This document shows, in pieces, positions 1,477 through 48,246 of a stretch of 64,000 bases of DNA. The stretch comes from a virus, in the IMG/VR virus record IMGVR_UViG_3300009678_000058. One strand, 5' to 3'. Both the position numbers and the translations under genes were made by a program. The notes beneath the pieces are model-generated. The model was not told the origin of the DNA. It saw only the letters and a list, made by a program, of their open reading frames with translations, and did not search any database. Numbering within the stretch: position 1 is the stretch's first letter; the number at the start of each line of letters is the position of its first letter.

Positions 1477-4400
1477 TTAACAAATTTTTTCTTGGTTACT
1501 TAATGAAGCTATGTAAGCACTGACTGATTCACTGGCACTGGGACTGAGATTATCACCTGTAGGCCACAGGTCATTTTCATTAAAATACCCACCTTCAGTG
1601 GTATCATTCATATCACCATACTGTGCCTGATAAGGATCAAAGCCATCCCTGATATTCTCAGCCTCAATCAATTCAAATATATTATTAAAAGCTGCCTCTG
1701 CTACACTCCCAGGTTTTATATCCACACCCATAGCAGTCAGTATTGCATTAATGATCTGTTTGAACTTGCTTAATGCACTTTGGTTTTCTCCTCCCATAGG
1801 AATATTAGAAAGATGAGCCTGAAACTTCTTATTGGTCATAGCCATAGTAATAAACTCCTTCAGGTTGATCATGCCATAGAACTGATCTATTTCTGCCTGA
1901 GTTATTTTCTGCTTATTAGCCATAGCAGCAGCTATCCTCTCCACCTCACCTTTTGGCATGCTATTCTTTACCCTGTTATACAACATGATAAGATTAGAGA
2001 CATAAGCAGGAGCATCACTGGTCTTCACCTGTGGATTAGCAGTATCCAGACCATCAATATAAGGCATAAGCTGCCTGACAGTAACACCATGCACTACTTC
2101 ATGCATAAAGGTATCTGCCAGCTTATCAGCATTGCTGAGTATTGACTCTTTTATATAAATGGTATTACCAGTGGCTTCATAAACACCAAGGGCTGTAGCA
2201 TGTGACTCTTCCCCTATCATGATACTATCCATAGTGACCACCTTGATACCATCAACAAAAGGAATTAATTCTTTAGCCAGTAAAGCAAAAGGAGTTGTAC
2301 TCTTACTGATATTAGTGACCATCTTTGTAACATCACCACCAGTCTTGATATCAAAGTTATTGGTCACTGTATCAGGATTCTCCTCTTCTATTATTGGTGC
2401 TGGTTTAGGTCTGAAGGCCATCCTTGTATTGATAGAAGATACTCCCATATCTACAGCAGGTTGGTATTCATCCATACCAAAAGCTCCCAGTATAGGAATC
2501 CTGACATACCTTCCAGTTGTTCCATCAAGCCAGTATAACTTGAACTTCTTATCCCCCTTCATTACAGTAGTGTCATAGACTGATACAAAGGTTGGCTTCC
2601 TGCCATCTATGAAAGTAAAAGTTCCATCAGGATGCATAAGAGCAGCAGCAGCCAGTTTCTTAGCATCATACTTGGCTTGTACTCTCTCAGGGTAGTGCTG
2701 GATATACTGCATGGTGAACCTGCTTACAAAATGCTTATCAGTACCATCATCCTTCTTCATTTTAAGACCCAACAGGGTGGAGTCATAATGAAACCTGTCA
2801 TTATTTTTCCTCATGGCAAGGGAATAGCCCATTGCATTGAGGTAAGCTACAGGGACATACTTGGTATATTGTATGGCTTCCTGTACTGCATTACCAAGAT
2901 AAGCTGCCAGTATCATGTCCTGTGCCAGTTCATCAAGAGTATACTCCTTGCCGTTAAAGGAAGGTAACTGTATCTTGCTTCCATCAGGATTTCTCTCTGT
3001 CAGCATCATTGACATAGAATCATAAAGGTACTGCTCATCAAACTCCTCTCCATCTGCATTGTTATACTTAACAAGTGAAGGCATACCATTCTTTTGGATA
3101 CCATCAAACTCAAACCTGTTAAGTAACTTGTTGGTCTTGATATATTCATCTATGGTCTTGTCACCTATTGTATTCTTTAGTCCCTTGATATAAGTAGCCA
3201 GTGACCTGTTTGTATCAGTATCAATATATAATCTTGCCCTCTCTGCATTGACCTCATCATTAGTCAGGCCATTGCCTTGTTCAGCAGCTAAAAACTTCTT
3301 GACATTCTGGAAGATGTGCTGTTTCTTTTCCACATTGCTTAATTCCAATCCTTTTTCTGTAGTAGTGACACCTAATATTTCCTTGAAGACCTCTTCCATA
3401 TTCTTGGTATCATAAGGAAAGAACCTGCTCCACAGGTTATAAGCCAGTGTGACTCCATTGATGCTGAAGCCTCCTGATAATGTTTCAGGTAGTACCATAT
3501 ACTGACCTATATCCATGTAACCCAGTTTTTGTAACTCCTGTAGCCTGCTGGCAGGTAAGCCTGCTTTGCGGATATAGTCCCCTATCAGGGCTGAAGCTCC
3601 CTGAATAGTGTCAGTATCCACTCCAAGTTTATTCAGCTTCTCCCTCTTATCAATGACATCAAAGAAGGACTTGCCCAATCCCTTGGAGTCTGTATTGATA
3701 CTGGTCTGTATTCCCCTGACAGCTATACCATACTTTCTCATATCCAAGAACCTGTTAAGCACAGCTCTCTGTATAAGAGCATCAGGCTTCAATGCTCTGA
3801 TACCTGTCCTGAAGTTATCATTATTCATCAGGTCAGAGGTCACCTCTTCATATTTAAGAGGATCAACATTCTCCCATGTCTTCTCAGGATCATACTTAGC
3901 AATCAGTTTATCTATTACAGCCTGTTCCTTATCTTCTGAAAACTCTGCCATGATAGAATTAATGTTCTTCATTTCCAGTACAAAGTCTCGTATAATAGGT
4001 TGAGATAAGAATAGAAATGGAATGGAGTCACCATCTGCTCCTTTATCAATACCTGTAAGCATGAACATCTTGAATACATCAAGGGTCATATCATTAAGGC
4101 CAACCCTGCCCATTACTTGCAGCTTTTCATTGTCCACTGCTATCTGCTGGGCTTCAGTTACTACCTCTGCTATATCCCTGCCCTTATCTCTTGTAGCAAA
4201 GCCACCCAGTTCAGGGTCAGAAGTAACTGTACCAAACCTCCATGTCTTGGGGATTTTTTTCTTTGCTCCTTCTTTTTCTGATGTAGGGTCATCTATCACT
4301 TCTATTAATGTGATAGGCTTACCAGATATTCTTGCCTGTTGAGCCATAGAATGGAATACCACATCCAAAGAGAAAGCACCAGTAGCTATTTTACCTGAAG

Positions 4401-7400
4401 CTCCTGATATCAGTTTGGCCTTCTGGTATTCATCACTTAAAGGAGTCCAGTAAGTACTATCCCTGTCAAGGTTAGTAAGCTCCTCAATCTTCATGGCTTG
4501 CTTCTCAGCAAACTTAGTATTCAGTACCCTTGCAATCTTAGCCTGTAATTTAGGATCAGGATTATTGAATACAGCATGGTTGATCTTAATAAGCTCATTC
4601 TGCATCAGCTTCTCATTGATCTTGGAGTTAAGCCTGCGGAGATACTTATTCTCTTCAAAGTCCTGTTCATCATAAGCTGCTGCTTCAAACAGGGTATTAA
4701 GAAGATGAGTTTCCCGTATCTTAGTCCTGACTTTATCCATTACATGCTTCTTGGCATTTGGGCCTTCAGCTTCCTCATACTCCTTTCTTAATTCAGCCAG
4801 GTCAGCCTTCTTCATTTCCCTGTCAGCATCAAAGAGTAATTCCCTTCTGTGCTTTTCCTGAAGCATTTCCAGCTTGCCTTCTTTAGTAGTATGTGTCCAG
4901 AACTGGTAGGAGTTCTCCTTATCCACATCAAAGTCCAAACCTTTTTGCTTAGTAAAGTTCTTGGGGACTATCATGAGGTCAGCACTCTGAGCAGGCAGGA
5001 AACCAGCTATCTCAATCTGTGAAGCTGATTGGTGACCTGATGTTGGAATTCTGAAGGACAGCATAGATAAGAGTTCCTTATCAAACATATCCTGCTTCAA
5101 GGTAAAACCCCCTCCTGCCTTTTGTTCAATGTAAATATACTTACCATCTACCTTCTTGAACAGGTCTATCAGATTACCATCAGCTCCTTTGAATTTAGAG
5201 GCCATGAATACCTGTGCCTTCTTCATGGTGCCACCTTCATCTACAGTAGAGGTCAGATGAGTACCATTCCATGCAGAGGTATAGATAATCTGTGATGTGT
5301 CAACTCCCTGTATGTTACTGGGGTATTCTTCATTTAAAATTTCTGCTAAAGCTCTTGCTTGAGAGACTTTACTGGAAGCAAACTTATCAGTAAGAGTTTT
5401 GTCTTTTGCTTTCTGAGCAAGGTCTTTTAATAATTCAGGATTTTCATTAAGATAAGTTTTCCATAGTTGTTTGTATTCTTCCCATTGCTGCTGTTCAGTT
5501 ATATCTCTTAGAGGTTTTTTACCTTTACCTAATCTCCAGTTATCACCCTGAGTTCTATAACCTTTTACATCAAGTTGATAAGCTTCTTCAATAGTTCTGC
5601 CATCATTTAATTTTGCATATAAAGCACTAAATCTTTTATCACCAGCAGAAGATACTTCATAACTATTATCCTGATATCTTGCCCAAGTGTAATTACCAGT
5701 CATCTCCAGTTTCTTTCTGATAAATCCTTCTTCACTACCTACTACAGAAGACACTCCTGGGAATTTCATCTTGATTATCCTGTTAGTAATGATAGCATTG
5801 AGCATGCTTTCATACCTGTTGGAATTAGAGGATGCCCACAGGGGAAGATTGAACTCTCCATCAATAAGAGTTAAGCCTTCAATATCCTGCAAGGGATAGC
5901 CTCTCTTGATAGCCTCATTCTTTAACAAGTCCTGAAGTTTAGCCATTGACCTGTTTGCATTCTTGGGAATGCCAAACTCATCAAGGCCAAGCTCATCAAA
6001 TAGCTGAGCTTTCTTTTCCTTGACCAGATTAAGAAACAGGTCATTGTACTCCTTATGTAATGAAGTTCCTGTTCTGGGTTCTCCATTGTAGCTGAAACCA
6101 TTGAAGTTCATGATCTCATCCCCAAAGAGCAGCTTCATTAATTGAGTTCCCAGTGAGATAGTATCTTCTCCCTGCTTACCACTCTTGAAAGGTACATCCT
6201 GCTGTATCCTGAAGTTCTTTCTGTCAAGAATTAATACAGGAGAACTTTCCATACCAGCAGGTATATCTGCATGATCATTTAAATGTTCAGTGATAGTACC
6301 ATCTTCATTCCATAAAGCAAGTGGAGTAGTTAAAGCACCAACCTTATTAGCTGATTGATATGAAGCTCTGACATTCATCTTGTTAGATTTTTGTATCTGC
6401 TCCATTTTAATTCTCAACTTATCAATCTCCATTCCCTTGGTGAGCTGAGGAATAAGAGGGAAAGATGAACACTTAATATATACCACTCTCATCATGTCCT
6501 GCTTCTCATCATGCATCCTTCCTGTATAAACAGGCTTCATAGGCTGCATGATCTTGGTGATAAGCTGTTGTTGTGTGGGAGTAATAGGTTCACCCTTCTC
6601 AAATATCTCAGCAGCCTCATTCAGTTGCTCTTGGGTAATATCCATTAAGCCATCACCATTTTTACCCAAGCGGGATAAGATATCAAGATGCTCCTTCCAT
6701 GTAGTATATTCCTGACCATCAGCAGCCTCAATGTCCCTGTAAGCTGCTGCTCCTTCTTTACCTAATATCTTCTCAAGATATTCAATGTTCTCAGCTACCA
6801 CACCTTTCCTGTCAGCAAGCATAAGCTGCAGGTATTGTTCCTTTGCTGAGTTAGCCAGTCCAGTTCCGGGAGCTATCTGGTTAGCCAGCCTCTTACCTAC
6901 ATTGGTGAAGACATCTTTGGCTACCTGTACATCATATTCAAGATCAGTCTTAAACTTAGCTCTTGTAGTAGTATCATCCACTTTATACATCTGTGCAGGG
7001 TCTCCAATGATTGCCATGAAAGAATTGGAATTAGCTACCAAACTATTGATAACATAGTCCATAGCTGCCATAGTAGCTCTTTGCCTATTATCTCCCCTGA
7101 ATTTATCCATGTACTTCTTATCAAAGAATTGCAAGGACACTTTACCATCAGCATCAGTCTTGGTTATACCATCTGTTTCCCATACTTTAAGCTTCTCTTT
7201 TACCAAACTCTCTACATAGCTCCTGATCTCATTATTAAAACCTTTCTTAACTTCTTCATTCTGCTCTAAGAATTGGAGGTTAAAGTCAGCAGGCTGATTG
7301 TATATCAGGTCAACTAACCTATCTCCATTCAACCTGATTTTATCATTGAGTGCTGGCATATTCAGAAACATCTTAGCTCCTGCATCATAGGACTTGACAT

Positions 7401-10400
7401 TAGTTTTATGATTTAATTCAGCATGTTTTATCATTCTTTTAAGCTCTGGCTTGACCACCTGTTCATAGATAACCTTAACAACTTCATCTGTTATACCACC
7501 ATCCCCGTTATTGAGATCAGCATTCTGAAAATGAAGAACAGCAGTGGTTATCAGTGTCATCACTTCCTTATCTGACATGGTGGGAGAGAACATGGTAGCC
7601 ATCCTCATGGCTATATCAGTGCCGGGATATTTATTCAGGACTGCTTTACTATCATCAGCCTGAAGCTCTACTTCTCCCTGTGTCATATCACAGAAGAATC
7701 CCAGTTTGTCAAGCTCATGGTCAGTGTCAGCCAGCTTGGTGATCCCAGTATCCTTATACAGCTTCTTCCCCTGCTGTTTAAAGGCAGTGAGACCTATATG
7801 AGAGACTTTGAACAGTGTCCTGAACTTAGGGCTGCTCTTCAGGCATTGCAGCCACAGGGAGGGACTTGAATAAGATGTGCTCATCAGGTTCTTAAGCAGG
7901 GCATGGTTATCAGGGTCTTTCAGCTCCATTACTGTATCAGTGATAGATTTACGGGCTGTAAGGGCAAAGATAGATTTACCAGCATCCCTGAAGGCAAAGG
8001 GAGAGATAGAAGTGTTATACTTGGCATCAACAACAGCCAGTGATCCTATTACAGAATCATCCAGCAGGTTATCACCTTCCTCTGTAAAATCATGAACTCC
8101 TTCCTTCTCTACCAGTAATTTTAACTTTAGATGCAGTATATGGAATAGTCCATTGCCACTGGTGAACAGGTCTGCTGTACTCCTCTTTCCATAGTTATGA
8201 TACATACCACTGGTCAATATCTCTGATAGTGTATCAGGATGAAGTTCTATCCCCAATTCTCTCAACCACTTATCTACACTCTCATTGCTCTTTATATCCT
8301 GCTTGTCAATACTGGCTATCTTAAATTCATTGTCACTTACTCTTGTCACCTGAAAATCCTGCCCCTTCATAGAGAACTGCACCCTTGTGGTTTGACCAGT
8401 CAGGTTTTGATTAAGCCATGCTAACAACTCACCTATAGGCTTTATGTTCATGGTCTTGGCAGGTCTTCCAGCAGCTTTATCTGTAGCAGCTACAGCAGGC
8501 TTAACCTGATCCACAGTTGGCCTGTAGCCTGACATATCAAGTGGAATCTTGGTAAGGCCAATACCCAACCATGATTCATATTGCTTTATCAGGTACTTTG
8601 CCCTCTCCTTATTGAAAACATAGTGACCAGTAACATCATCAACCATTACTATATCCTTTCCATTTTCAGTTAGATTACCCCTCCATTCTTTCTCTATTGC
8701 ATCAGCTACTCCACTTAAGTTAGTATCATATACTTTAGTAGTCCATGTTCCAGTCATCTTATTCTCAGTGATCATGACAAACTTCATCCTGAGACTGGAG
8801 TTATCCATTGCTGTTACAAACTGGCTCTTCTTCTGGTTTGTTGTGCTTTCAAGTCTCCTGATAACTTCAGCCATCCAAGGTACAGTCTTAACATGAGTCT
8901 TCAACTTGGCTATCATGGTATCAAAGTCAGCAGGTGTATCAGCCAAAGCTGTCATTAATCTTCTCACTACTTCATCTGAACCAACATAAGTATCCAATCC
9001 CAGGAACCCTTTCATTATCTTACCATCCTTGTCATACTCATTTATCTGCCCAAAGAATCTTCTCATAGAGTATGTCAGCTTCTGTTCAGGAGATTCTGTC
9101 AGTACATTAGTGGAGAAATCACCACCAAATAAAACCTCTTCTTCTGTTGAATTGGTTTCAGGGTTCTCTTCACTGGATTGCTGATCATTCTCTTTCTCAT
9201 TGGTAACCTTGTCCTCTGTTATTCCAGTGTACTTGGCTACCCTGTTATAAGCCTCTTCCTGTAATACATCAAAGCTCTCCCTGACAGCTTCTATCTGGGC
9301 AAGTCTCTTCTCATAAGTAGCTATGTTTGATGTCATCTTTGAATTAGCAAACTGGGGAAACTTGGCTATCAGTTCTTTGGCAATTCTAACTTCTTCTTTG
9401 TGATGTGTTTCAATAGGAGCTATAGTCTTATCAAAAGCTGCCTTCACCTCTCCATCCACCATAGTCCTGCTTACTGCCACACTATCCAAGTCCACCATTG
9501 CAACAATCTGGTTATATATGAAGTCCACTATATCAAATTGCTGGTCAGGAGTAAGACCTGCTATTCTTAATAGTGACTCTTTTACATATTCTATCTGTGC
9601 CTCTGTCATTGGAGTAGGTGCATAACTGGCTTGTGGAGCAAGATCAGGTAACTTCTCTCCCTCATTAAATTCCTTACCCAATCCTTTCTCAGCTCTGGCT
9701 AACCATTCTGCCATAGCCTTCTCAGCCATCTCTTCAGCACTTGGCCCTTCAAGTTTAGGTTCACCGGGAGGAGTTACTTCCTCTTCTTCTTCTACCACTG
9801 TCCCTTTTTTAGGTGTCTCCACTTCTCTTTCCTCCTCCATCTTCTTAGCCATCTCATCATTAGTAGGAGCATGTCTTTGCTTATCCAGATTTGATACCAG
9901 ATCAAAAGTGATCACAGGCTGTATATTGGTTACATAATTTGGCTCAGCAGCAGTACCAATATTATGAGACCTCACATTAGTCTTGATCCTGTCAAGCAGG
10001 TAATCCTTATAGCTGGGAGAAGTTTTATTAGTGGTATATTCAGCACCTATAGTGATGATGGGCTTATTAGCATTAAGATTGGGAAGATCAACATTCTGTT
10101 CAAAGTAATCAAGGATACCTGACTTTGCAAAATCTTCCACTACCTTGTCAATGATTTTAGGATCAGTGACATTAGGATTGATATACTGGGAACCCACTCC
10201 CTTACCTTTAGCATTGGTAAAGGAATTCTGTCCTGTTCTCCCAAATATAATATGTCCACCCTGCAAAGCAACAAAGGGAGTTCCCGGAGCAAGATTAGCT
10301 CTTGCTGCTCCTTCAACTACCTCTCCATAGGTCTGATTAACTCCAGCCTTTGTCTTTGAATTGAATATCAGCATGAAGTGATTGAGATAAGCTTCAATAC

Positions 10401-13400
10401 CTGCTGGGCTATAGATATCAATACCCATCTCTGTCCTGATAGTATCTACTACAGCCTGATGCTTGTCAGACTTCTTAGGATTACTTCTATGGGCATATAT
10501 ATAAATAGCCCTCAGTACAGAAGCTCTTGCATCCTTATCCAGTTTATCCCTGAAGGTTGGGAATCCCATATAGGTCTTCTTGCCATCACTGTTGGTTCCA
10601 TATCTTCTTACATCTATAATTGCCCCCTTCCTGAAGTGCTCAATGTTCATAAGTACATCAGTATCATTAGGGAACCTGACACCTAATTCTCCTCTTGCAG
10701 TATTAAGACTGGTTGCTGTCATAGCTATGGTCAGCTCAGTGTCAGGATTAGCTTCACGAAGAGTGATATTATTATATTCAGTACCCTTGTTGGTCTTTAG
10801 TCCTTCAAAGGTGGTTTGACGTTTTTCAGTGATCTCAATAGGAGTTGCTGCTCTCCTGTCAGCCAGCACAGCTTCCCTGATCTGTCTTGTATGAGCAATG
10901 GCATTAGCCATAGCCTGAGAAGAATCCTGATCAAACCTTTCAGGATGATACCAGCCAACATCATGTACAAAGGCAAGACCCTTCTGGCCTGAGAGACTTT
11001 TACCCTTATCATAAATGATCATAGGAATCTTGTCAAGGTACTCAGGTGAATCAGGAGTAATGTGAGGATTCTGTGCCAAGTACTGCCCAAAGGTGATAGC
11101 AGTTCCTTTAGTGCCATCTGGATTAAACATAGGAACTTTAATCTCAAGGTGATTAGCAGGAATCATGATCTCCATTGCAGTACCTGCCACATACCTGTCA
11201 GGGTCTAGCAATTGCAGGCTGTCAACATACTCTCCTACATTCAATTCATCAGCAGTATATTCAAAGGAAATCTCTATTCCCTCATCAGTCTGTGTCCTGA
11301 CAACAGTGGCAAACTTTGTAAGGAAAGCAAACTTGGGTGAAGACTCATTAGTAACATAAACTCTCTTACCCACTTTATCTTTATAGAAATACTTGGGTTG
11401 ACTATTAGGATCAAATTGAGTTTGCCCATTAGCTTTAGCCTCCACTGGTGCAATAGTGACATCAGTAGCATCACTTAATTTCTTGTTGGTATTAATCATT
11501 CCCCTTCCACTCTCCACAAAGTCATTCATAGGATCACCAAATATCTTGGTATAGATAGAAGCATAATCCTGTGGGGGCATATTGTTCTTCTCCCAACCAT
11601 AGACAGCAGCATTAAAAAGTTCATCAGCCACACCAATCCCCTGAACCTTTGCAATGTGTCTTATCAAATCTTCAAAGTTAGGCTCACCACCAAGTCTTGC
11701 TATCAGTCCTGCAACACTGGTAACTACTTTATCCTTTGTCTCCTGTGGTGAACCTTCAATATCAAGAGGCTCAGGGGCAAAGCTGGTAGAAGCTTCAGGA
11801 GACATGGAACCTAAATCCAGTTTAGTCCCTCCTGTATCTTCAGGATCACCAGTAGTCTTCTTACCCTTCATGCCATTGATGTAGTCATTGTCTGCACTGA
11901 ACATATCAAAGTTACTTGATACAGAAGAAGCATTCTGTTGTGCTACAACAGCCTGAGCAGCTTCAGCAGCAGCTATCTCACTCTCCTTCTTATTAGCAGC
12001 TTCCGTCTCCTCTGCTGTAGCACCCCCAGGTTTATTAGCTGCCGCATCCTTGGTATTCTGTACCTGTGCTCTTGTCCTAGCCTTATTAATTGATTCTTTA
12101 TTTCTTTGATCAAGGTATTTGGGATTATTCCACAAAGCAATATTTTTCCTCTGAAGTGCTATGGCATTCTCAAGATGAACGTTATCCTTATTTAATCTCT
12201 GGTAAGCAGGACTTGTAAGTGCTGACCTGATAATGTCACTGTCTTTCTCTTTTTCTTCAGCAGCATAAGTATCATCGGTTGCAATTTCCTGTAGCCTGTC
12301 ATTGATTTTAGTAAGTTTAAGTTCATTACTCTTGATCAGGGCATTTATATTATCTCTCTCCATCTGGTTCTCTGTAGCCCTGTGCTGTTCTGTGAGTCTT
12401 GCTCTTTCAAGATGAAGACTGAGTAAATCATACTCAGCTTCATATTGCTCCCTTCCATAACTTGATAACAGGTCATATTGTGTGAGTTTGGTTTTTGCTC
12501 CTGCCAGTTTAAGGTCATGCTGTGATTTCTCCTGTAATAATTTATTAAGCTGGAAGTGATCTGAAGTGACTTCAGGAACAAAGTTCTTATTGTATTTATC
12601 TTTAACTGAATCATAGATGGCTTTTAGTTCATGAGCATCATCAATACTATCCTGAAAGTTCTTCTTCACATATTCAATCTGCTCTGGTGTAGGACTTTCA
12701 AAACCTACATCCTGCAAGGCTTCAGCTTTTCCATTGGTCACATCATCCAGAGTTCCCTGCAGGTATGCTATGTGAGCATTAAAGGCAGTATCCTTATCTG
12801 TCATAGCATCATAGTGAATACCTCCCAGTGCTTTCTTATTCCTGAATTGCCTGCGAACTATATCAGCTTCCTTATGCTTGCCTTGTTGCTGCAATAGCAT
12901 TATCTCCATTCCTATTGCACTATCCATCTTGCCTACATTCTTTACATAGTCATTATGAAGTTCATTAAGCATCCTTGTTCTGCCTCCATCAATGGCCTTG
13001 TTAGTCAGCTTCATAAATCCTCCAATGATAGGAGAACCAATTACACCACCAGCAAAGTTGTTCCAGAATTCATCCTCTCCTACTGCTCCTCCCACTCTGC
13101 CAAGGAAAGTGGTAGCATCATCCATACCCCCCAGTACTCTTGCATAGTGCTTACCTTCACTGGAGGCTATATATTGCAGTCCCTCTTCAGTACCTTCTGT
13201 TAAACCTGTTACACCAAACTGGGTTGCTCCTCTTAAATATTTATTACCAATCTTAGCCAGTCCTCTTTCAATCAACCCTGTACTTGAACCACTGATAGGA
13301 TTAAATACCATTGTCCTGTAGCCAAGGATATCCAAGGGAAGAAGAGCCATGTTACCCATGTAAGTCCTGTCAGCACCAGCATTGGCATATTCTTCTACCT

Positions 13401-27149: not shown

Positions 27150-27870
27150 AATCAGGTATTAATTTACTTCTTTCAATAAGATGTGCTTTAAGCTGATCAA
27201 CAAAAGAATAACATTCATATATTTTATATGTAGCATCTGCTTTCAGATACGCTAATAATCTTTTGGTGATGGATAATCCAATTTCTTCCAGCATAATTTG
27301 ATAGTAAGAGAACTGTAGCTGATAGTGATTATAAGGATGATTCTCCAAGTAATTGAAAGGGAAGAGCAGCATGGCCCATCTCTTAAACAGGTCAGCATTG
27401 GTCTTGTAATCAGCCAGTGCCAGCTCCCCTGTCTTTCTATGCCTGAGCAGTAAATCTGCTGTGCCAGCATAGCCAAACTCCCTTGAATACATTCTTATTT
27501 CCCTTGCCACTATCTCATACTCCTTCAGGATAAAGGTCAGGAACTTAATGCCAGCCTGCTCCTGTGGGGTCATGGGAGTCTGAAGTCCAGAGTATCTTTC
27601 CATGAAAGCATGGGTCTCATGTCCCAGATCACAGGCTAATTGATTAATGGTCTGCCATCTATGCTCCAGTTCATGTTCAGATATATTCTCCTTCTTTGCA
27701 CATATAGGTAACCATTTGGTTTTATCAAAAGGAGGGACATGTTCTTCCACCAAGGCACTTACTGACCTCGGAACTCTGGCTCCCTCCCAACAGTAAATAT
27801 GCCTTTTCTCCTCAAAAGTGAGAGAGGAGAACTGCTTGGTTATATAGTTGTGAGTTTGTACTGCTGTCAT
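27136..27870 (-). CDS. PD-(D/E)xK family nuclease
   Basis: 244 aa. SVSALV, LGHETHAFME, YAGTADLL...LADYKT and YQLQFSYY motifs of Cas4/RecB-like phage exonucleases. Confidence 0.8.
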   Translation of the reverse strand: MTAVQTHNYITKQFSSLTFEEKRHIYCWEGARVPRSVSALVEEHVPPFDKTKWLPICAKKENISEHELEHRWQTINQLACDLGHETHAFMERYSGLQTPMTPQEQAGIKFLTFILKEYEIVAREIRMYSREFGYAGTADLLLRHRKTGELALADYKTNADLFKRWAMLLFPFNYLENHPYNHYQLQFSYYQIMLEEIGLSITKRLLAYLKADATYKIYECYSFVDQLKAHLIERSKLIPDYVAW

Positions 27871-33520: not shown

Positions 33521-33529
33521 TGATTATAA

Positions 33530-35674
33530 TTACAAGGTACAAGTATTGAGAATAGCATCAGCAGCCCCCAAGAACCTTACCTGAATGGTGTAATTCACTC
33601 CACCAAGACCACCAAAGCTGCCTGCATAATAAAATAATGTTGGATCATTTATTGTCACTGGACTACCTTCCACTGATGCAGTGCCAATGTTATAGGCATA
33701 TATCTGCATCTTCAATACAGCAGGATTATTAATAACTGAAGCTGCCACAGCAACTTCATAGTTGAGAGTTGCTCCTGAGAATGTAGTTACCACATCAGTG
33801 GGACAAGCTGTATTCAGTGTCAGTGGACAGGTAACAAGATCAGTGGAATCAGGTATATAGTTAGGGTTAGGATTGCCATCACCGTCAAGCACAGTATTAT
33901 TTGCAGTTTCTCCTGTTGGAGCATTGCCATCATTAGCATCCACTTCCTGTAATGTCACTACAATCTTCTTTCCTGTATTCTGACTACCAGTAGTAGTGCT
34001 GACAAGAGTAATAACACCATCAGTTGCAGATGCAGGCATACCACTCCATGCACCCAAGCCAGGAGATGTGCCAACCACATTAGTAGTTCCCGGAATACCA
34101 GCACCATTGATGTAATATTGGTTCTCAAACATATTGCTGAAGACAAAACCAGTCCTGTTCATCAGGTACATTCTCTTAATGGGGCTTGCATCAACACTAT
34201 TATTTATCCCTGTATAGCCTATATACAAGTCACCATTGACAGGGTTAATCATGCCATTGTAGCCTGCATTAGCCTTACCCTGCCTGTTCACTGCATCTAT
34301 TGTTTGTACCACAGTATGAGTGACTACATCTATGATGAACAGCTTGCTTGAGCCTATATCTGTGATAAACATCCTCTGTGAAACAGGATCATAGAAGCCA
34401 CCCTGCCAGTACTTGCTTCCACCACCAGTCCATGTAGCAGCTCCCGGAAGTGTTATCACAGCAATTGATGTATCCAAAGCTGTATTATATACTCCTACTG
34501 TACCTGTTGTACCATTACTGGTTATTGCATATAGTTCATTTGTAGCTGTAGCTTCAATTAACTGGATTACTCCACCTAAGAAGTTTCCATTGAGAGGTAT
34601 CCCTGCAATAGGCACTGTGCTGAGTATGGTTTGTGTCTCCCTGTTGATGATGATAATACTGATAGCAGCATCATTACAGTATATCCTGTTACTGGTAACT
34701 GTCAGTAATGTTCTATTAAAAGCTCCATTAGTACCAAAAGCAGCAGGAGTAGTGACTGTATCAGTGATGATATTATAGACCAGCATTCCTCCTGTATTTG
34801 CACCTACAAAATAGATCTTCTTGTTTGGGCCATCTATGTAAGTATTGTATAATGCAGGATCAATGATCTGTGTGGAGTGAGTCATGTGTGCAGGAAGGGT
34901 AGCTGTATCAGGATTGAACCAGTATACATTACCTGCTGCATCATCCTGATCAGCAATATAGACAAGATTGGAAGCAACATCATACCATGCAGTATAAGGA
35001 GAGGAGAGACCAGATATAGTCTTCACCACACCAAATCCACCTTCTTTCTCACACTGTACAGCAAGAGGAATCCAGATAAGGTCTTCCACTATTACTGGTG
35101 CATCAGTGGTGAGATTATAAGGCCCGCATACTGTATTGAGATAGGAGGACTGTGAAGAGTTGACCTCTACTCCATTGATGGTAGTATAGAGGACAGTTTG
35201 CCAGTAATAAGCAGTGCTGCCTGTTAGTCCTGTGGCTGTAGCTATAGCCTGATTTGCCACACTGGTTATGATAGTAGGGCCAAAGACAATGGTATTATCA
35301 CTGGCCTTGCGCAGAGTAAACCTTACTTTAGTGATAGCAGTGCCAACCAAGCTGACCACAGCCTGTGCAGTAACATCAGTATTGGAGAGAACTGGCTCAA
35401 TGCAGACAAAGGCTATCTGCTCCCTTGTGCCATTATTATTGGAAACAGGGCCATTCTCTGTACATTCACTCTCCACTTTAAACTCTACTATCCTGTTGGC
35501 ATCAAGGCTACATATATCAATTACATTTTGAGATGTAGGCATAGGATTGGCATCATCAAAACCTGTGTTAAGCCAAGGAACATCACCTTTATACCTCCAA
35601 TAAGCTGTCTGTGTAGTATTATTGGGGTTGGCCAGAACCTCTGTGTTATCCCATGCAAGTGAAAAACATGCCAT
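33530..35674 (-). CDS. Virion appendage protein: FN3/Ig-like domains plus beta-propeller
   Basis: 714 aa. N-terminal beta-sandwich repeats (GLTGSTAYYWQ); central YVTN-like blade repeats (YDVASNLVYIAD, YIDGPNKKIYF, YDPVSQRMFITD). Confidence 0.55.
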   Translation of the reverse strand: MACFSLAWDNTEVLANPNNTTQTAYWRYKGDVPWLNTGFDDANPMPTSQNVIDICSLDANRIVEFKVESECTENGPVSNNNGTREQIAFVCIEPVLSNTDVTAQAVVSLVGTAITKVRFTLRKASDNTIVFGPTIITSVANQAIATATGLTGSTAYYWQTVLYTTINGVEVNSSQSSYLNTVCGPYNLTTDAPVIVEDLIWIPLAVQCEKEGGFGVVKTISGLSSPYTAWYDVASNLVYIADQDDAAGNVYWFNPDTATLPAHMTHSTQIIDPALYNTYIDGPNKKIYFVGANTGGMLVYNIITDTVTTPAAFGTNGAFNRTLLTVTSNRIYCNDAAISIIIINRETQTILSTVPIAGIPLNGNFLGGVIQLIEATATNELYAITSNGTTGTVGVYNTALDTSIAVITLPGAATWTGGGSKYWQGGFYDPVSQRMFITDIGSSKLFIIDVVTHTVVQTIDAVNRQGKANAGYNGMINPVNGDLYIGYTGINNSVDASPIKRMYLMNRTGFVFSNMFENQYYINGAGIPGTTNVVGTSPGLGAWSGMPASATDGVITLVSTTTGSQNTGKKIVVTLQEVDANDGNAPTGETANNTVLDGDGNPNPNYIPDSTDLVTCPLTLNTACPTDVVTTFSGATLNYEVAVAASVINNPAVLKMQIYAYNIGTASVEGSPVTINDPTLFYYAGSFGGLGGVNYTIQVRFLGAADAILNTCTL

Positions 35675-35688
35675 TGTTGAATAGTTTA

Positions 35689-37219: not shown

Positions 37220-37244
37220 GAGAATAGAAGTTTAAAAATGTCAG

Positions 37245-37272: not shown

Positions 37273-37301
37273 CTCTCAGATCAATTAAGATATACACATT
37301 A

Positions 37302-38759: not shown

Positions 38760-38789
38760 TTTTTTGAATATTTAAGATATAAATTATTA

Positions 38790-39509: not shown

Positions 39510-39515
39510 GCCAGC

Positions 39516-40436: not shown

Positions 40437-40481
40437 AATAATTCAGTTTTTGTCGTTAATAAATGTGTTGATCTTAGTCTT

Positions 40482-40512
40482 AAAAAGAAGGTGGAGGCTA
40501 GTCTCCTCCACC
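40482..40512 (-). terminator. Rho-independent terminator after the major capsid gene
   Basis: 8-bp stem GGTGGAGG/CCTCCACC with a 7-nt loop, followed by TTCTTTTT on the minus strand. Confidence 0.75.
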
Positions 40513-40549
40513 CCTCGGAGGATATATCAAAGCAATGAAAACATAAACT

Positions 40550-42007
40550 TTAGTTACGGGACAGGATGAGTTCACCACATCTTGTCACATCTTCAATGTG
40601 GACACCACACTGTTTTTGCACATGCATTTCATAATAGTCACCGCTATGTGCCATAGAACCTTTGTTCACAGGCCCATAAGGAGTATGCAAACCATGTACA
40701 TAGCCAAGCTTGAAGCTATTTGCCCTGTCAACAAGCTGGACATTGGTGCCCATTTCACCCTTGCCATTGAAATCAAGGAAGGTGATTCTTTGAGATTCAA
40801 CAGGATAACCTGTTACAGGATCAATCTCAAAATTGATTTCCCTGTCATCATAAAGAGGGTTGTGAACCAGTTCCAGTTCAGCACCATTAGCCATGCGATA
40901 TCTTACAAATTGGAAGCCGGCAACAAGGGCATTCTCATGGTAGGCTGATGTTGTCTTGTCAATGAGAACTTTATCAACCACTTGTATAAAGCCCCTTCTC
41001 TTTTCAGACCATGATTGTATAGCCCTGTGGAATTGGATCATTCCATACTCACCACTGAAGCCTTTAATTTTTCTTGTAGCTCCGGGTTTTACCCTGCTGT
41101 AGAAGATATCCATCAGGTATTCTTCTATTAAGGGGGCAGACAGGTGAGAATAAAAGTGTTGGTGGGAGTCTTCCAGTTGTTCCTGAACACCGGGGCCAGA
41201 ATAGATTGGTCTGCCATTGGCACCAAGCACAGTGTCAGTGCTGCGGGAATACCAGTAGCCTCTTTCAATCTCCCTGTACCACTGTTCCCAGTATTCAACT
41301 TCAGCATATTTTACCCATGAATCATGCCACCTGCCTTTGCTATCCTGTATCTTGATAGCCAGCACTTCATTGGCAGCATCACCAGTTACCCTGTATTTCT
41401 TCCTGAAACGAGACATCCTGTTTTGCAAAGCAATAGGCAGGCTGTACTGAGTAGAACCAGATTGTTCAGCAGCTTCCTCATATTGAGAGTAAAGCTTGGC
41501 CCATTGCTGATTGGGAGACAGGTACTTGATTGGTAAGGAAACTGTAGGATCATCCCACATACCTCTTACTTCATAAATGAAGCCCTTACCATGTTTGAAG
41601 GATTGTGTTGTTACACGTACCTGCCACTTTTTATTACTTGACCCAGGATGGAGAATATCACCGGGAACATACCAGTCTTCATCAAGCTTCAGCTTGAAGG
41701 TCTGTTTAAATCTTCCGGGAGTTAAATTGGCAGATGGTTCAACATTCTCAATCACTATCAATGGTCTGGTGTTTGCACCCTTCATTGTCCACTCCCAGAC
41801 AGTAGTATTGATTGTCTTTTGTTGTTTGCCAGCCAGCATAGTTGTCAGGGGGTTATCTGAGTATCTCTCAGATGTGAACAACTGTGTCATCTTGGGTTCA
41901 AACACTGTTGGCTTAATGAGTAAAGCTGCACCAAGGTGGTTCAGCTCCGTCATATTAGCATGCCAAGGCATTTGCTTAGTGATTAATCTGTTTAATAGTC
42001 TTGCCAT
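40550..42007 (-). CDS. Major capsid protein (HK97 fold, crAss type)
   Basis: 485 aa. EYWEQWYREIERGYWY, GPGVQEQLE, GFQFVRY..NG.ELELVHNPLYDD and DYYEMHV.KQCGV motifs. Follows portal and scaffold; followed by a terminator. Confidence 0.9.
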   Translation of the reverse strand: MARLLNRLITKQMPWHANMTELNHLGAALLIKPTVFEPKMTQLFTSERYSDNPLTTMLAGKQQKTINTTVWEWTMKGANTRPLIVIENVEPSANLTPGRFKQTFKLKLDEDWYVPGDILHPGSSNKKWQVRVTTQSFKHGKGFIYEVRGMWDDPTVSLPIKYLSPNQQWAKLYSQYEEAAEQSGSTQYSLPIALQNRMSRFRKKYRVTGDAANEVLAIKIQDSKGRWHDSWVKYAEVEYWEQWYREIERGYWYSRSTDTVLGANGRPIYSGPGVQEQLEDSHQHFYSHLSAPLIEEYLMDIFYSRVKPGATRKIKGFSGEYGMIQFHRAIQSWSEKRRGFIQVVDKVLIDKTTSAYHENALVAGFQFVRYRMANGAELELVHNPLYDDREINFEIDPVTGYPVESQRITFLDFNGKGEMGTNVQLVDRANSFKLGYVHGLHTPYGPVNKGSMAHSGDYYEMHVQKQCGVHIEDVTRCGELILSRN

Positions 42008-42038
42008 TGTAACAAGTTTTTGTTTTATTTTAAATTAC

Positions 42039-43439: not shown

Positions 43440-43522
43440 AATCCTGTGTAAATTTAAAGTTTGAAAGTTGAATTTATTACAGTTTAAAACTGAACTTTTA
43501 AGAAAGTTGCTTAATAGCTTTT

Positions 43523-45931
43523 TTATTTGGCTGGTGCTAACTGTTTAGAAGCCTTTTTATCTTCAATCTTAAGTTTCTCTTTATCCACATTCTTCTGATG
43601 CCTGAATTGTTCTTCCTTAAGACTCTGCTCTCTTTGCCTGATCTCAGCATCAACCCCATATTTAGCAACTTCCAGTACATCAGGTACAGTATCCTGATCC
43701 ATATCTTTATCTTCATTGAAGCCCATTGAAAGAATAGCCTGCTGTTGAATGACAGTCTTTCTTCTTTCTTTCTCCTTGGTAATGATGACATTGATCTCAT
43801 GTTCCCTGTCTATTTGTTTCTCTGCTGAGATAGCCTGCCTTGCCTGTTGTTCAGCTTCAATCCTTCTTTGTTCAGAAGCTTGGGCTTCTTCAGATTTACG
43901 AATTTGTGCAACTTCCAGTAAGTCTTCAGCCTCAGTAACAGATTCAGACCTGATAACCTTGATGATATCAGCAAGGTCAGCCTGCTGATTCTGCATAGCA
44001 GCTTGGGCTAAGCCTTCCACTGCTCTTTTGGCATCAGCAGCCTTGGAAGAATTGGATATGAACAGACCATAAGTGGAGGAATCCAGTAGTTCAGGATCAA
44101 TAGTGATCATCTTATAGGTCATATCATCAAGGATATAGACCAGCTTGCGTGGCTTGGAACCAGCATAAGCTACTTTGGCTGTCTCTACTAATCTCTCAAG
44201 GACATTGCCTTTGACAGAGTTGTGCAGCTCAAAGTAAGGCTGAATGATATGAGAGGACTGAACCAAGTTCTGCCTTGTATTTGACACTGCTTCATTAGGG
44301 CCAATCTGTGCCTCCATCTGTGGAGTGACCCCAATGCTTGTTCCACATTTATGTTCAATATATTCTGCAAATTTGATATACTGGTCAATGGATGAGGCAA
44401 GGGACATGTCAATTTCTTTCACCATGTTGGTAACATCTCCTCCTCCCCTGTTGCCTTCCTCATTGGGATTAAGCCATGCAATAGAGTTTGCCTCAAAGAA
44501 GTAAGTCCACTTATTGATATCAATACCAGCAGATTTGGGAATAGAGTTTAGGTTCATGGCCAGCTTCTTTCCTTTGTCTGAAGCCATCATCAATTCAACC
44601 CTATAGAGAATAACATCATAGAAGTACTGATATCCCTTCATCCTGTCCATTGCAGAGGTGACAGGAGAATTGAGGTTATCAGTGGTTGCACCACAGTAGG
44701 GAAGTTTGCAGACATAGAGATTGTCCAAGTCCTTATGCTGACCTGGGATGGCTCTTGCATAAACAAAGATGTCACTCATAATCTTATAGCACTCATGAGC
44801 TTCAGGTAGCCATTCCCATTCAAGGGTGATATCCCCTGCCATTTCATTGAACTTGTAATTCTCATCCACCAGCTTCATTTGCTCCCTGTTGTTCTTATCA
44901 AGATAGGTCAGGAATCCAGTTTTGCGCAGAGACTTCCATGTAGCATGGACTACCCTTATAGTATAAGGATCATTGTAATCTTCATTGAAAGTGAATTCAG
45001 CATCCCTGAGAGCAGCTCCGGGATTATGATGATAGGTGTAGATTTTATCAATATCATCTTCAGAAAGTTCAGAACCAAAGCTGGCTACTACTTCTGAAGG
45101 AGAGAGCCTGTATTCATATACTGCCCACTCTCCATCTTCAATATAATCAAGGTCAGGAGATTTATCATAGTCAAAGAATAAGGGATTAATGACTTTAAGA
45201 CAGGGTTCACCATTGAGAATACCTACCCAATATATTTCTTCTCCGGCTATCAGGGAGTGTTTACAGCCCTTATTAAACTTTTCTGCCACTTTCTCCTTGA
45301 GGATGAGGTACTCCAGAATTTGATGAGTCATGGCTTCAGCAGGGTCTTGATGATCCCTTACCATGTACTTTCTTACTTCTTCAGGAGTTTGTGCTTTGGT
45401 CTCTTCTTCTATCTGCTGTTTAAGTTGTTGTTCTTCTTCAGGGGTGAGCTTCCTTCCCTTGGTCTGAGCCATGACCTGTGCTTCAATCTGCTCTCTTATG
45501 GGTCTCATCACCTGTGATGTCACAAACTCTTTCAGCAGTTCAGTCTCCTTCTGCTCCCTTCTGGTAGTAGCATCTTCATTGACAGCTACTACCTTCCATG
45601 AGAAAGGCATCTTCATCTCCATGCCCATGAGAACTTTTATCTTTCCTGAAACTATATCCCTGTTGGTGAAATTTGCGGGGAGGTCTCCTACCTCTGAACC
45701 AAAGGGCTGACATACATAAGTGAAATCCTGTATGTCTATGATGTTATTGAATAAGTCATAGTTGACTTTCTTGCGCTTATATTCTGAGAGGCCACTAAAG
45801 GCCATGAAATTTGTACCATTAAAGGATTTAGTATCTAACAGGTTTGCCTGATCCTTATACCACTGTTTATCATTTGCATCTTTCTTTCTCTGACTTATCC
45901 TCTGTTTATTGTTAAGATACTTGGTGTTCAT
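43523..45931 (-). CDS. Portal protein
   Basis: 802 aa. NYDLFNNII, IKVLMGME, LYVCKLPYCG and MDRMKGYQYFY motifs with a coiled-coil C-terminus; directly after TerL. Confidence 0.9.
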   Translation of the reverse strand: MNTKYLNNKQRISQRKKDANDKQWYKDQANLLDTKSFNGTNFMAFSGLSEYKRKKVNYDLFNNIIDIQDFTYVCQPFGSEVGDLPANFTNRDIVSGKIKVLMGMEMKMPFSWKVVAVNEDATTRREQKETELLKEFVTSQVMRPIREQIEAQVMAQTKGRKLTPEEEQQLKQQIEEETKAQTPEEVRKYMVRDHQDPAEAMTHQILEYLILKEKVAEKFNKGCKHSLIAGEEIYWVGILNGEPCLKVINPLFFDYDKSPDLDYIEDGEWAVYEYRLSPSEVVASFGSELSEDDIDKIYTYHHNPGAALRDAEFTFNEDYNDPYTIRVVHATWKSLRKTGFLTYLDKNNREQMKLVDENYKFNEMAGDITLEWEWLPEAHECYKIMSDIFVYARAIPGQHKDLDNLYVCKLPYCGATTDNLNSPVTSAMDRMKGYQYFYDVILYRVELMMASDKGKKLAMNLNSIPKSAGIDINKWTYFFEANSIAWLNPNEEGNRGGGDVTNMVKEIDMSLASSIDQYIKFAEYIEHKCGTSIGVTPQMEAQIGPNEAVSNTRQNLVQSSHIIQPYFELHNSVKGNVLERLVETAKVAYAGSKPRKLVYILDDMTYKMITIDPELLDSSTYGLFISNSSKAADAKRAVEGLAQAAMQNQQADLADIIKVIRSESVTEAEDLLEVAQIRKSEEAQASEQRRIEAEQQARQAISAEKQIDREHEINVIITKEKERRKTVIQQQAILSMGFNEDKDMDQDTVPDVLEVAKYGVDAEIRQREQSLKEEQFRHQKNVDKEKLKIEDKKASKQLAPAK

Positions 45932-48246
45932 CAGGCTGAATGTTTAAATTGTTTCTTCATCATTTCAAGTAAGTCACTGGCATTGGATGAGCCATTATTC
46001 TCACCATGTACCTTGTTCTCTTCTTCTTCTGCTATCTGGAACATGACCATCATGAAGGACATCACCCTATCAAAGTTACCTTGTCTGTTGTAGAAGATCA
46101 ACTCTTCAAGCAATGCAGGATCATAAATAGTTTCAAGGTTAAGAACTGCATATCCATTTTCGTCATAATCACGTATATCTAATAACCACTGCTTAATGTA
46201 TTTCTCTCCTGCATCTTTAAGTTTCTCTGCCATGTGAACACCATAGACTCTTGCTACCTTGGAATTGTTGATAGCTTTAGAGATAACACCATCAGGCTGA
46301 GCAGCAAGCAAATGTAACTTTTTTCTACGTTCAAAGTATTTTTTAACATGAGTGACCTCATTCTCATGCATGATCTCTGCTCCATAAAGCTCTGCTAACA
46401 TTTCACATATCCTGTTCACATCATCAGGATCATAAGGTCTGCCTATGTACTGTGCTACTATCCTGTTGGAGCTATAACTGAACTTATGATTTGCTTTGTA
46501 AACATAGATGCTGCCTAAAGAAGGGAGGACAGAGGTTGACTGATCCTGTCTGTAAGGGTCAAAGCCCATCTTGTAGAGACCACGAGGGGCATTGGGAATT
46601 GGGTATTCATAGATGACAACAGAGCCTTTAAGGTCTTTGGTCTTTGGTTTGTAATCCCAGAGTGGCTGCAGGTATCCATCCAGATCAGGTGTTGCCTTGA
46701 TGATGTATTTCTTACCGGGGATTTTATGTCCATCATCTGTATAGGTATCTGGTTGATTGACTTCCCTTCTTTCAAGAAAGCATGCCTGCCCATATTTGAG
46801 ATGCAGGTTCTCTCTCATCACCCTGTTGTATTGATTACGCAGTTCAATTACAGGGAAGTCATTCATGGAGACCATTAAGAATGCCTCCATTGGATTGAAA
46901 GGATGCTCCTGTACTCTTTGCTGGATAGAGCCAGAGTCAGATGCATTGGCAATGATCTTTGCTCTTACTGTTTTCTCTTCCTTGGTTGCTCCTATGATAT
47001 CACTGTTTCCCTGTTCATCATAGTAGCCTTCCATGTTCCATGTAACAGGATGGAAGAAGCCACAACAGGAATTCTCTGCATCCTCATCCCATACATTGAC
47101 AAATGGCATGAGGTTATCTTCCTTGGGATGATAGAACATATCTGCATAGTCAGCAGTGCCAGATTCCATATCACCACCTGTACCAAAGATGATGATCTGT
47201 CCTGTAATATATTTACCTGCTGACAGGCTTGGTGAGGTTTTCCTGAAGCTCTCCTTAAGATTAGGGAAAGCTCCTGACTCTTCAAACAGAACTACCTTGG
47301 GGTCTTTACCTCTGGCTGCTTCAGGATTATCTGCAAATGTTATTGCCATTATCTCTGACATATAGCCTGCTTCCACTGGCATACCCTGTGCATTCATTTC
47401 CCTGAAGGAGGCCCTCTTATGTTCTGCCTTATCAACATATTCCCTTGCCTTTCCCCAAGCTGTTTTGTCATTGAGGAAGGATAGATATTCAGAAGCCATA
47501 CCCATTGTACCAGCAGGGTAGAGATATTTCTTGTCAAAAGCCCCAATGATAGTCTGAGACTTGCGAATAGTGTTGTAGACATTGGCACAGATAGCTCCGT
47601 TTTTATATGAGTAACCTTTTCTACGGGATTTACCAATGATAATGTGATGTCCTCCATCCCTCCAATCAACTTCAATGGTAAAAGGAAGAGCAAGACTTTT
47701 AAGAACTTTCTCCTCAAGGATAGTTCTGAGATCAGAGTTCTTTTTAAGTACACCATCAGGGTCAACATACTGGAAATTGGTTGTATCATTTATTTCAAGA
47801 GCATTACTAATTCTCACCCTCTCAGCTTCAAGTCTCCAGTACTCAGCTCTCTGTTCCTTAGTGGAAGGAGCTAAAGCCTCATCAGTGAACAGGCCATTTT
47901 TTGCTATCTCAATGGCCCAGAAAAATGCAAAGTCCCCATCCCAGAAATCAGGAGCTTTCACCTCCTTGATTGCTATCTTACCTCCCTTCTCCTCTGCTAT
48001 CTTGATCTGTGTGAAGTTCAAATAAAAATAGTGGTGTTGTGTTATCTTCACCCCACCACTACTGTATCCATTGATGCACCTGTCCAGCATAGTATCCCAG
48101 TACTCTGTGTACTGGTGTGAGCCTTCAGGGTCAGTACAATAGTATCCATTCTTCCTGAAGCCAATGGCCTCCTCCCTGAATACCTGTGTGTTTAACCATA
48201 CTCCCTGTTCATTCCTGACCTGATTGGTTATAAACCTTGTGCTCAC
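45931..48246 (-). CDS. terL: Terminase large subunit
   Basis: 771 aa, GTG start. Walker A region IIGKSRRKGYS, Walker B VLFEESG, coupling motif FGTGG, nuclease MGFDPY and C-terminal NFDRVMS. Confidence 0.93.
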   Translation of the reverse strand: MSTRFITNQVRNEQGVWLNTQVFREEAIGFRKNGYYCTDPEGSHQYTEYWDTMLDRCINGYSSGGVKITQHHYFYLNFTQIKIAEEKGGKIAIKEVKAPDFWDGDFAFFWAIEIAKNGLFTDEALAPSTKEQRAEYWRLEAERVRISNALEINDTTNFQYVDPDGVLKKNSDLRTILEEKVLKSLALPFTIEVDWRDGGHHIIIGKSRRKGYSYKNGAICANVYNTIRKSQTIIGAFDKKYLYPAGTMGMASEYLSFLNDKTAWGKAREYVDKAEHKRASFREMNAQGMPVEAGYMSEIMAITFADNPEAARGKDPKVVLFEESGAFPNLKESFRKTSPSLSAGKYITGQIIIFGTGGDMESGTADYADMFYHPKEDNLMPFVNVWDEDAENSCCGFFHPVTWNMEGYYDEQGNSDIIGATKEEKTVRAKIIANASDSGSIQQRVQEHPFNPMEAFLMVSMNDFPVIELRNQYNRVMRENLHLKYGQACFLERREVNQPDTYTDDGHKIPGKKYIIKATPDLDGYLQPLWDYKPKTKDLKGSVVIYEYPIPNAPRGLYKMGFDPYRQDQSTSVLPSLGSIYVYKANHKFSYSSNRIVAQYIGRPYDPDDVNRICEMLAELYGAEIMHENEVTHVKKYFERRKKLHLLAAQPDGVISKAINNSKVARVYGVHMAEKLKDAGEKYIKQWLLDIRDYDENGYAVLNLETIYDPALLEELIFYNRQGNFDRVMSFMMVMFQIAEEEENKVHGENNGSSNASDLLEMMKKQFKHSA

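Follow-up and report, generated by a model that had tools for sequence, protein, structure and literature searches.

Proline-glycine codon choice and CCWGG spacing point to the relative weight and probable mechanism of two pressures on the DNA of a crAss-like phage

The window analysed here, a stretch of 64,000 nucleotides from the IMG/VR virus record IMGVR_UViG_3300009678_000058, covers the late-gene half of the genome of a crAss-like phage, uncultured and apparently lytic, that belongs to the FpV4-like group. Its DNA avoids both the dinucleotide CG and the pentanucleotide CCWGG (W, A or T; S, C or G), and the two avoidances meet at proline-glycine (Pro-Gly, CCN-GGN), the sole dipeptide with CCWGG or CG in every spelling. 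At this dipeptide, CCWGG avoidance overrides CG avoidance and causes a surplus of CCGG, and the CCWGG sites that survive are spaced far more evenly than expected by chance. Both features can be best explained by unmodified DNA shaped by two layers of avoidance, a clade-wide purge of CG and a lineage-specific avoidance of palindromes, colliding at Pro-Gly. We give this explanation a probability of roughly 0.75. Codon choice at Pro-Gly and the spacing of CCWGG would then reveal the relative weight and, probably, the mechanism of the two pressures. Whole-contig counts refer to the complete record of 73,845 bp (73.8 kb), and the window is the reverse complement of its bases 2376-66375, with one base different.

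CG is rare throughout the window. Between positions 1477 and 48246, the late-gene block, 124 CGs remain (rho(CG) 0.064), 43 of them within CCGG. The window as a whole holds 207 in 64 kb (rho 0.08, with a range of 0.02-0.17 over all 4-kb bins), and the contig 256, compared with ~1429 expected when synonymous codons are shuffled freely. CCGG accounts for 57 of the 207 CGs in the window and for 69 of the 256 in the contig (27%), which is 5 times the share expected from the flanking bases. A preliminary description of the sequence had reported very rare CG across the late genes and many of the surviving copies in CCGG, and the counts agree on both points. Its hand tally of Pro-Gly codons also proved exact. 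Among the 48 Pro-Gly pairs of the late block, proline is spelled CCC in 22, CCG in 14, CCT in 8 and CCA in 4, hence with C or G in 36 (75%), and in the muzzle gene 9 of 10 pairs are CCS-GG. There are 52 Pro-Gly positions in the window and 56 in the contig, 42 of the latter with C or G.

The neighbouring codon combinations behave very differently. Proline before other G-starting codons ends in C or G in only 15 of 297 cases in the contig, and the corresponding counts before glycine are 9/124 for Ala, 2/138 for Thr and 1/64 for Ser. Taken together, these NCC-GGN combinations reach 12/326 (3.7%) against a C baseline of 28%, which is ~8-fold lower, indicating that CCGG is purged wherever a spelling free of both CG and CCWGG exists. 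Pro-Gly pairs supply 42 of the 69 CCGG copies of the contig, so that forced CGs account for 61% of the CCGG copies and for 16% of the CGs overall. The dipeptide itself is not depleted at the amino-acid level (observed/expected ratio, O/E, 0.90).

Codon usage and composition were controlled by permuting third codon bases only within the same amino acid, first two bases and following base (300 shuffles), which preserves the protein, the codon usage and all dinucleotide counts, with CG fixed at 256. Under this dinucleotide-preserving null, CCWGG is strongly under-represented (32 observed, 151.7 expected, z -14.3, O/E 0.21), and both CCGG (69 against 40.6, z +10.7) and CCSGG (49 against 18.1, z +8.7) are over-represented. 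The other CG palindromes ACGT, GCGC, TCGA and CGCG stand at or below expectation. The contrast between CCWGG and CCGG drawn in the preliminary description thus persists once codons are controlled for, and the avoided target is CCWGG rather than CCNGG or CCGG, as would be expected of an EcoRII-like system.

Comparison with relatives separates the two avoidances. The set comprised 80 IMG/VR relatives found via the capsid protein, together with FpV4, crAss001 and Cellulophaga phage phi14:2; 69 loci were scorable for CCWGG, with an avoider defined by O/E <0.45. The CG purge is nearly clade-wide: almost all loci have rho 0.00-0.27, with FpV4 at 0.06 and crAss001 at 0.03, and only L052 (0.38), L054 (0.60), L063 (0.81) and phi14:2 (0.49) stand apart. 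Phages of these host genera that are not crAss-like have retained CG (Flavobacterium phage 11b, rho 0.72; Bacteroides phage B40-8, 1.19), and the purge is therefore specific to this phage group. The earlier view of it as a lineage- or host-specific restriction signal does not fit this distribution. Avoidance of CCWGG, on the other hand, is patchy: it is found in 15 of the 69 loci, and these are identical to the 15 in which CCSGG outnumbers CCWGG. Clear non-avoiders spell Pro-Gly 100% as CCW-GG and have 0 CCGG despite 15-80 CGs each. On the tree of the major capsid protein (MCP), each of the 9 changes involves both traits at once, and 3 of the changes fall on well-supported branches; crAss001 is among the lineages that changed. 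At orthologous Pro-Gly columns of the MCP, C or G is used in 60/70 cases by avoiders and in 23/365 by the others. A further lineage from a metagenome scan (L139) has 0 CCWGG against 18.6 expected and spells Pro-Gly 0 times with W and 9 times with S. Over the ~100 related phage loci examined in all, the CCS-GG spelling of Pro-Gly is confined to lineages that avoid CCWGG. This comparative switch, combined with the null, supports the conclusion that CCWGG is avoided at the expense of CG at Pro-Gly.

Two further observations concern the range of the purge within the clade. Loci L068, L069 and L071-L073 carry 0-10 CGs in 13-21 kb (rho 0.00-0.02), well under this phage. In L054 and L063 the purge has been largely lost within the same capsid clade. 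Both groups of loci are natural contrasts from which the gene or host factor behind the purge might be traced.

The surviving CCWGG sites provide a second line of evidence. The gaps between the 32 sites of the contig have a coefficient of variation (CV) of 0.45, compared with 0.98 expected (0 of 20,000 draws from the pool of positions able to carry CCWGG), and only 3 gaps are shorter than 1 kb where 11.3 are expected (P=1.5e-4). For the late block, tested with 19 sites, two of which lie in the contig to the left of the window, the smallest gap is 959 bp (P=5.5e-4) and the CV is 0.31. The 17 sites between positions 1 and 48246 are separated by 959-3738 bp, and 12 of them are Pro-Gly; the eight sites from 48703 to 60399 comprise three intergenic ones, four of the NCC-WGG type and a single Pro-Gly. 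Where Pro-Gly pairs cluster, a single CCWGG is kept, as seen in the muzzle gene (table) and also at 41642-41719 and 34058-34093. A thinning model with one parameter, which starts with the 152 expected sites and deletes until no pair lies within a distance d, leaves 30-36 survivors with a CV of 0.37-0.39 and a largest gap of 4.4-4.9 kb for d = 1.0-1.25 kb; the observed values are 32, 0.45 and 4.2 kb. Among the 11 other motifs that had enough sites for the test, no over-dispersion was detected for CTAG, CCGG, CCSGG, CG, GGCC, CCNGG, CTGCAG, CTGGAG, GCATGC and GAATTC, and the spacing of RGATCY (9 sites) is borderline over-dispersed (P=0.04).

The depletion of CCWGG to an O/E of 0.21 hence looks like a near-maximal packing of harmless lone sites, and the order of costs becomes a CCWGG pair within ~1 kb above CG, and CG above a lone CCWGG. 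The earlier statement that selection against CCWGG outweighs the general pressure against CG accordingly stands at Pro-Gly, on account of the null, the purge of CCGG elsewhere and the comparative switch, and does not extend to lone CCWGG sites, which appear to be tolerated. A comparison of additive strengths by a single number was dropped, since the S(CCWGG) of 1.8 derived contig-wide from NCC-WGG is inconsistent with the Pro-Gly result. All six NCC-WGG sites are located outside the late block, and what a CCWGG costs varies with its neighbours. Those six sites all lie in the segment 48247-64000 and in the contig left of the window (-7470 to -3108), where CG is about twice as dense as in the late block. 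By contig region, rho(CG) rises from 0.064 in the late block to 0.142 in the early and other regions, where either the purge is looser or the DNA arrived more recently. No description of a spacing rule embedded in a phage genome emerged from our literature search; what the analysis adds is this rule for CCWGG, together with the Pro-Gly conflict.

Sparse EcoRII sites in T3 and T7 DNA are refractory to cleavage, and the spacing of CCWGG brings this behaviour to mind. EcoRII recognises CCWGG and leaves a lone site uncut, since one or two additional copies must serve it as allosteric effectors (PMC2770665, PMC4081073), and PMC1474071, citing Reuter et al., reports no activity at separations >1000 bp. 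With such a two-site need and a limit of ~1 kb, a partial depletion of CCWGG reads as packing of harmless lone sites. The likeness is twofold: the phage is depleted in CCWGG and enriched in CCSGG, matching the specificity of EcoRII, and its lone sites are tolerated while neighbours in cis are not, within a limit of ~1 kb that approximates the reported loss of activity beyond 1000 bp, a pattern seen in a single lineage and not replicated in the relative G001. The present case differs from EcoRII in that the parallel is drawn from phage sequence alone and in that other CCWGG-avoiding relatives remove nearly all of their sites, as expected of single-site isoschizomers. The guess of an EcoRII-like system in the preliminary description thus gains specific support from the ~1 kb spacing, and we infer restriction enzymes as the agents, with a CCWGG enzyme that belongs to the two-site type.

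CCWGG is one of many avoided palindromes. In the contig, GGWCC is observed 0 times against 57 expected, CTAG 19 against 113 (O/E 0.17), RGATCY 9 against 69 (O/E 0.13), CAGCTG 0 against 36, CATATG 1 against 22, CTGCAG 8 against 42, CCATGG 0 against 21, AGGCCT 0 against 17 and GRGCYC 0 against 21. Under the dinucleotide-preserving null, z falls below -4 in 21% of 307 palindromic motifs tested. Sites are therefore under-represented with protein, codons and dinucleotides all controlled, as in Type II restriction-site avoidance, and with at least nine further palindromes avoided, the fingerprint can no longer be read as that of just two host systems. Avoidance of CCWGG, GGWCC and CTAG comes and goes among neighbours on the MCP tree, so that the set varies between lineages. 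In five whole relatives from five lineages (G001-G005, loci L086-L112; 89-101 kb), RGATCY is present in 0-7 copies, AGGCCT in 0-1, GRGCYC in 0-2 and CAGCTG in 0-9. This suggests that the FpV4-like clade has a core of avoided palindromes beside variable ones (CCWGG, GGWCC, CTAG, CATATG, GGCC).

In one of these relatives, G001 (L086-L090, 92.7 kb), the dipeptide Gly-Pro is nearly absent (6, O/E 0.12), and GGWCC (0 copies) and GGCC (28) are avoided. The O/E of Gly-Pro in the other relatives is 0.33-0.52, and restriction avoidance may reach the amino-acid level in G001. CTAG is nearly absent in two unrelated Bacteroides phages, B40-8 (L085; 3 against 81 expected) and crAss001 (L082; 2 against 170), a deficit in keeping with a system that cuts CTAG and is common among Bacteroides. 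The case for B40-8 as a second Bacteroides phage that avoids CCWGG is weak (7 against 13 expected).

The overall picture resembles the restriction-site avoidance described for non-temperate phages (Rusinov et al. 2018, PMC6286503), where Type II-like palindromes are scarce or missing in double-stranded DNA phages of lytic type without methyltransferases and where the avoided set differs between related phages. The present case differs by the added clade-wide purge of a dinucleotide, by the collision of two avoidances at one dipeptide, which makes their hierarchy readable, and by one site that is thinned to a minimum spacing instead of being eliminated.

The CGs that survive are not distributed equally over contexts. 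CCG is retained most (1.43), ACG and GCG are near 1.0, and TCG is retained least (0.64). Over the two strands the effect combines in a roughly multiplicative way, and leniency for both CCG and CGG is visible on the sense strand, which points to a strand-symmetric reading at the DNA level. Enrichment of CGY arginine codons in the capsid gene is marginal (P=0.035) and was not used. The most enriched words of the contig are CAGG/CCTG (z +14) and ACAGG/CCTGT (O/E 1.62), probably a knock-on of the replacement of CGN arginine codons by AGG together with a preference for CCT proline and CTG leucine codons.

These observations can be combined in a mechanism of two layers. In the first, a clade-wide CG purge would act through weak, roughly additive selection per site (scaled S ~3.8), graded by context with TCG purged most and CCG least, and symmetric on both strands. 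In the second, lineage-specific avoidance would act on about ten palindromic Type II restriction sites. Those of presumed single-site cutters would be eliminated (GGWCC, CAGCTG, CCATGG, AGGCCT and GRGCYC, all with 0 copies), and CCWGG would be thinned until no two copies lie within ~1 kb, as a two-site (Type IIE, EcoRII-like) host enzyme would demand. Because every spelling of Pro-Gly has CCWGG or CG, the layers would collide there, with CCW-GG kept where the site is isolated and CCC/CCG-GG used elsewhere, giving rise to the 42 forced CGs.

A purely mutational origin of both depletions would dispense with selection. CpG and Dcm-type methylation by the host, followed by deamination of 5-methylcytosine, could remove CG and CCWGG alike and leave CCS-GG as a mere remnant. 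TG/CA is indeed over-represented in the window (rho 1.29), and M.MpeI-type CpG methylases accompany CpG loss in some bacteria, according to work cited in a passage of PMC11282364. A turnover test allows for a direct comparison of the two processes. The relative L001 matches the contig with 96.6% identity over 14.7 kb, and between the two, third-position synonymous C/T differences, with Pro-Gly excluded, number 7/695 before G and 112/1586 before other bases. A two-state model fitted to the non-G sites predicts 31.2 differences before G under hypermutation and 8.1 under selection (scaled S ~3.8), compared with the 7 observed (Poisson P=1.7e-7 and 0.14, respectively), and the shorter comparison with L002 agrees. 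Raised turnover from CG to TG/CA between close relatives, the sign of methylation-deamination decay, was not found, and the CG purge is therefore maintained by selection, not mutation. Furthermore, decay can neither lift CCS-GG over the baseline of proline codon use nor space the survivors evenly, it leaves the zero copies of GGWCC, CAGCTG, CCATGG and AGGCCT unexplained, and all 6 CCWGG sites comparable with the 96.6% relative are conserved, so that we regard the mutational account as very improbable. Even less plausible is a translational codon-pair effect, in which CCC and CCG would be favoured before GGN for decoding and DNA words would play no part. Codon-pair biases do occur in bacteria, but the preference flips between close relatives with the same proteins, tracks CCWGG avoidance in all frames and gives way to 100% CCW-GG in non-avoiders.

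Two other alternatives take selection for granted and assign it differently. Evenly spaced CCWGG sites might be kept for a function of the phage, such as periodic protein binding or packaging marks, and not just be tolerated; their regular gaps (CV 0.31 in the late block) and their conservation in the nearest relative would suit such a role. Pure thinning, however, reproduces their number, CV and maximum gap without positive selection. Other avoiders of the clade have 2-8 sites per 90-100 kb, which makes the sites dispensable, and the sites lie in unrelated codon contexts, leaving a dedicated function quite unlikely. Somewhat less improbable, though still unlikely, is a specific protection of CCGG, or its exemption from the CG purge, for instance through marking by a host methylase of the HpaII/MspI type. 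CCGG outside Pro-Gly stands at 2.4 times the flank expectation, and NCC-GGN is used 5 times more than NCC-GHN. Yet NCC-GGN remains ~8-fold under baseline C use, relatives that do not avoid CCWGG lack CCGG altogether, and the residual surplus fits a multiplicative CCG context (1.43 squared = 2.0 against the 2.4 observed). Moreover, the use of C at Pro-Gly is 65%, compared with a 25% baseline, pointing at a positive push and not at tolerance. The CCGG surplus is therefore mainly a by-product of the Pro-Gly conflict, aided by CCG being the least-penalised CG context, and is no evidence for CCGG-specific protection.

Several observations nevertheless weigh against the explanation by two colliding layers. 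Without Pro-Gly sites, CCGG is still over-represented 2.4-fold among surviving CGs, and NCC-GGN is less purged than NCC-GHN (odds ratio 5.1, P=4e-4); part of the surplus is thus a context effect beyond the Pro-Gly conflict. The spacing rule comes from one lineage, the nearest 96.6% relative has the same sites, and a metagenome scan for more strains of the lineage returned only that of L001 (99.9% identity). The rule was not reproduced in the whole relatives G001-G005: G001, an avoider of CCWGG, shows no over-dispersion and contains pairs separated by just 19 and 327 bp, and in G002-G004 the remaining sites are too few for the test. In addition, 12 CCSGG sites lie 1.0-2.0 kb from any CCWGG, which means either imperfect saturation of the rule or a range beyond 1 kb. 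A search of genome contigs for the host, made with the host-like GH-PKD tail glycosidase, returned no relatives. Finally, the contig is only ~75% complete.

The preliminary description had also considered cytosine modification by the phage, and this part finds no support. Matches to the methyltransferase families PF00145 and PF01555 are absent from this contig, and in five relatives 93-100% complete neither these two families nor PF02086 and PF00303 matched, with the search restricted to these four families; no C5, N4/N6 or D12 methyltransferase was thus detected. The search for T4-like cytosine hypermodification (dCMP hydroxymethylase or thymidylate-synthase family, PF00303) covered the relatives. 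The phage thus appears without a protective methyltransferase of its own, in a contig ~75% complete, and the heavy site avoidance argues for unprotected DNA. CpG depletion that goes with CpG methylation, as in vertebrates and, in the passage of PMC11282364 consulted, Mycoplasma penetrans with M.MpeI, shares the extreme CG deficit and the TG/CA surplus. It differs in that here the turnover test favours selection and no CpG methylase was found in the families searched. Compared with those classic cases, the deficit of the clade is also deeper, and co-occurring unrelated phages are without it. Papers that deal with CpG or dinucleotide bias of crAss-like phages were not found in our literature search, and one large survey of phage CpG took in only four Bacteroidota phages. 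The preliminary description is partly supported: its core holds, whereas its framing is too narrow.

The capsid protein shares 64% identity with its counterpart in FpV4, a phage of Flavobacterium psychrophilum, and crAss-like Bacteroides phages were also matched. The late genes are tightly packed, with overlaps of 4-14 bp (14184-14187, 27136-27149, 27867-27870 and others). CheckV estimates the completeness of the record at ~75%. No replication module was seen in the contig, in which this level of completeness makes any gene absence weak evidence; the module appears to be encoded in the portion of the genome that the record lacks.

Table. Positions of genes, Pro-Gly examples and CCWGG sites in the window
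Feature	Position	Strand
Late-gene block (virion RNA polymerase (RNAP) and cargo genes, muzzle, tail, MCP, portal, TerL)	1477-48246	-
Giant cargo/RNAP gene, open reading frame of 4236 aa (virion RNAP)	1477-14187	-
Muzzle gene, virion structural protein of 1610 aa	19740-24572	-
Major capsid gene; 4/5 Pro-Gly pairs are CCC-GG, CCTGG kept at 41642-41647, CG at neighbours 41660 and 41714	40550-42007	-
Portal	43523-45931	-
TerL	45931-48246	-
Example of a forced CG, Pro-Gly CCC-GGA in the 4236-aa virion RNAP gene	6865-6870	-
Muzzle-gene cluster of four Pro-Gly pairs in 78 bp; one CCTGG (23301-23306), the other three carry CG	23286-23363	-
CCWGG starts between 1 and 48246 (17 sites)	1709, 4797, 5756, 9000, 12026, 14824, 16832, 20570, 23302, 26911, 30381, 32697, 34059, 37630, 38959, 41643, 44742	.
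CCWGG starts in the rest of the window (eight sites)	48703, 51306, 52652, 54374, 57108, 58465, 59261, 60399	.

What reads CG is a separate matter. We suggest tentatively, with the odds somewhat against it, that crAss-like phages in Bacteroidota face, during infection, an undescribed DNA-level activity that reads bare CG. It might correspond in bacteria to CpG sensing, or be a nuclease encoded by the phage itself, which would then have to stay poor in CG. Such an activity would treat both strands symmetrically, be harshest on TCG and mildest on CCG, and impose a small additive cost per site. If it exists, the Pro-Gly conflict would serve as a built-in ruler that places its force below that of an EcoRII-type pair of sites and above that of a lone site. 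The selection test and the rough strength per site narrow the kind of agent behind the CG purge of this abundant phage group, and the codon analysis corrects a tempting misreading of CCGG as protected or methylated in CG-purged crAss-like phages. The spacing test is applicable to any pair of phage and motif and could predict two-site restriction enzymes from sequence alone. More generally, a phage genome can record the words read by host defences, their relative weights and even the mechanism of an enzyme, with a need for two sites written as a minimum spacing.

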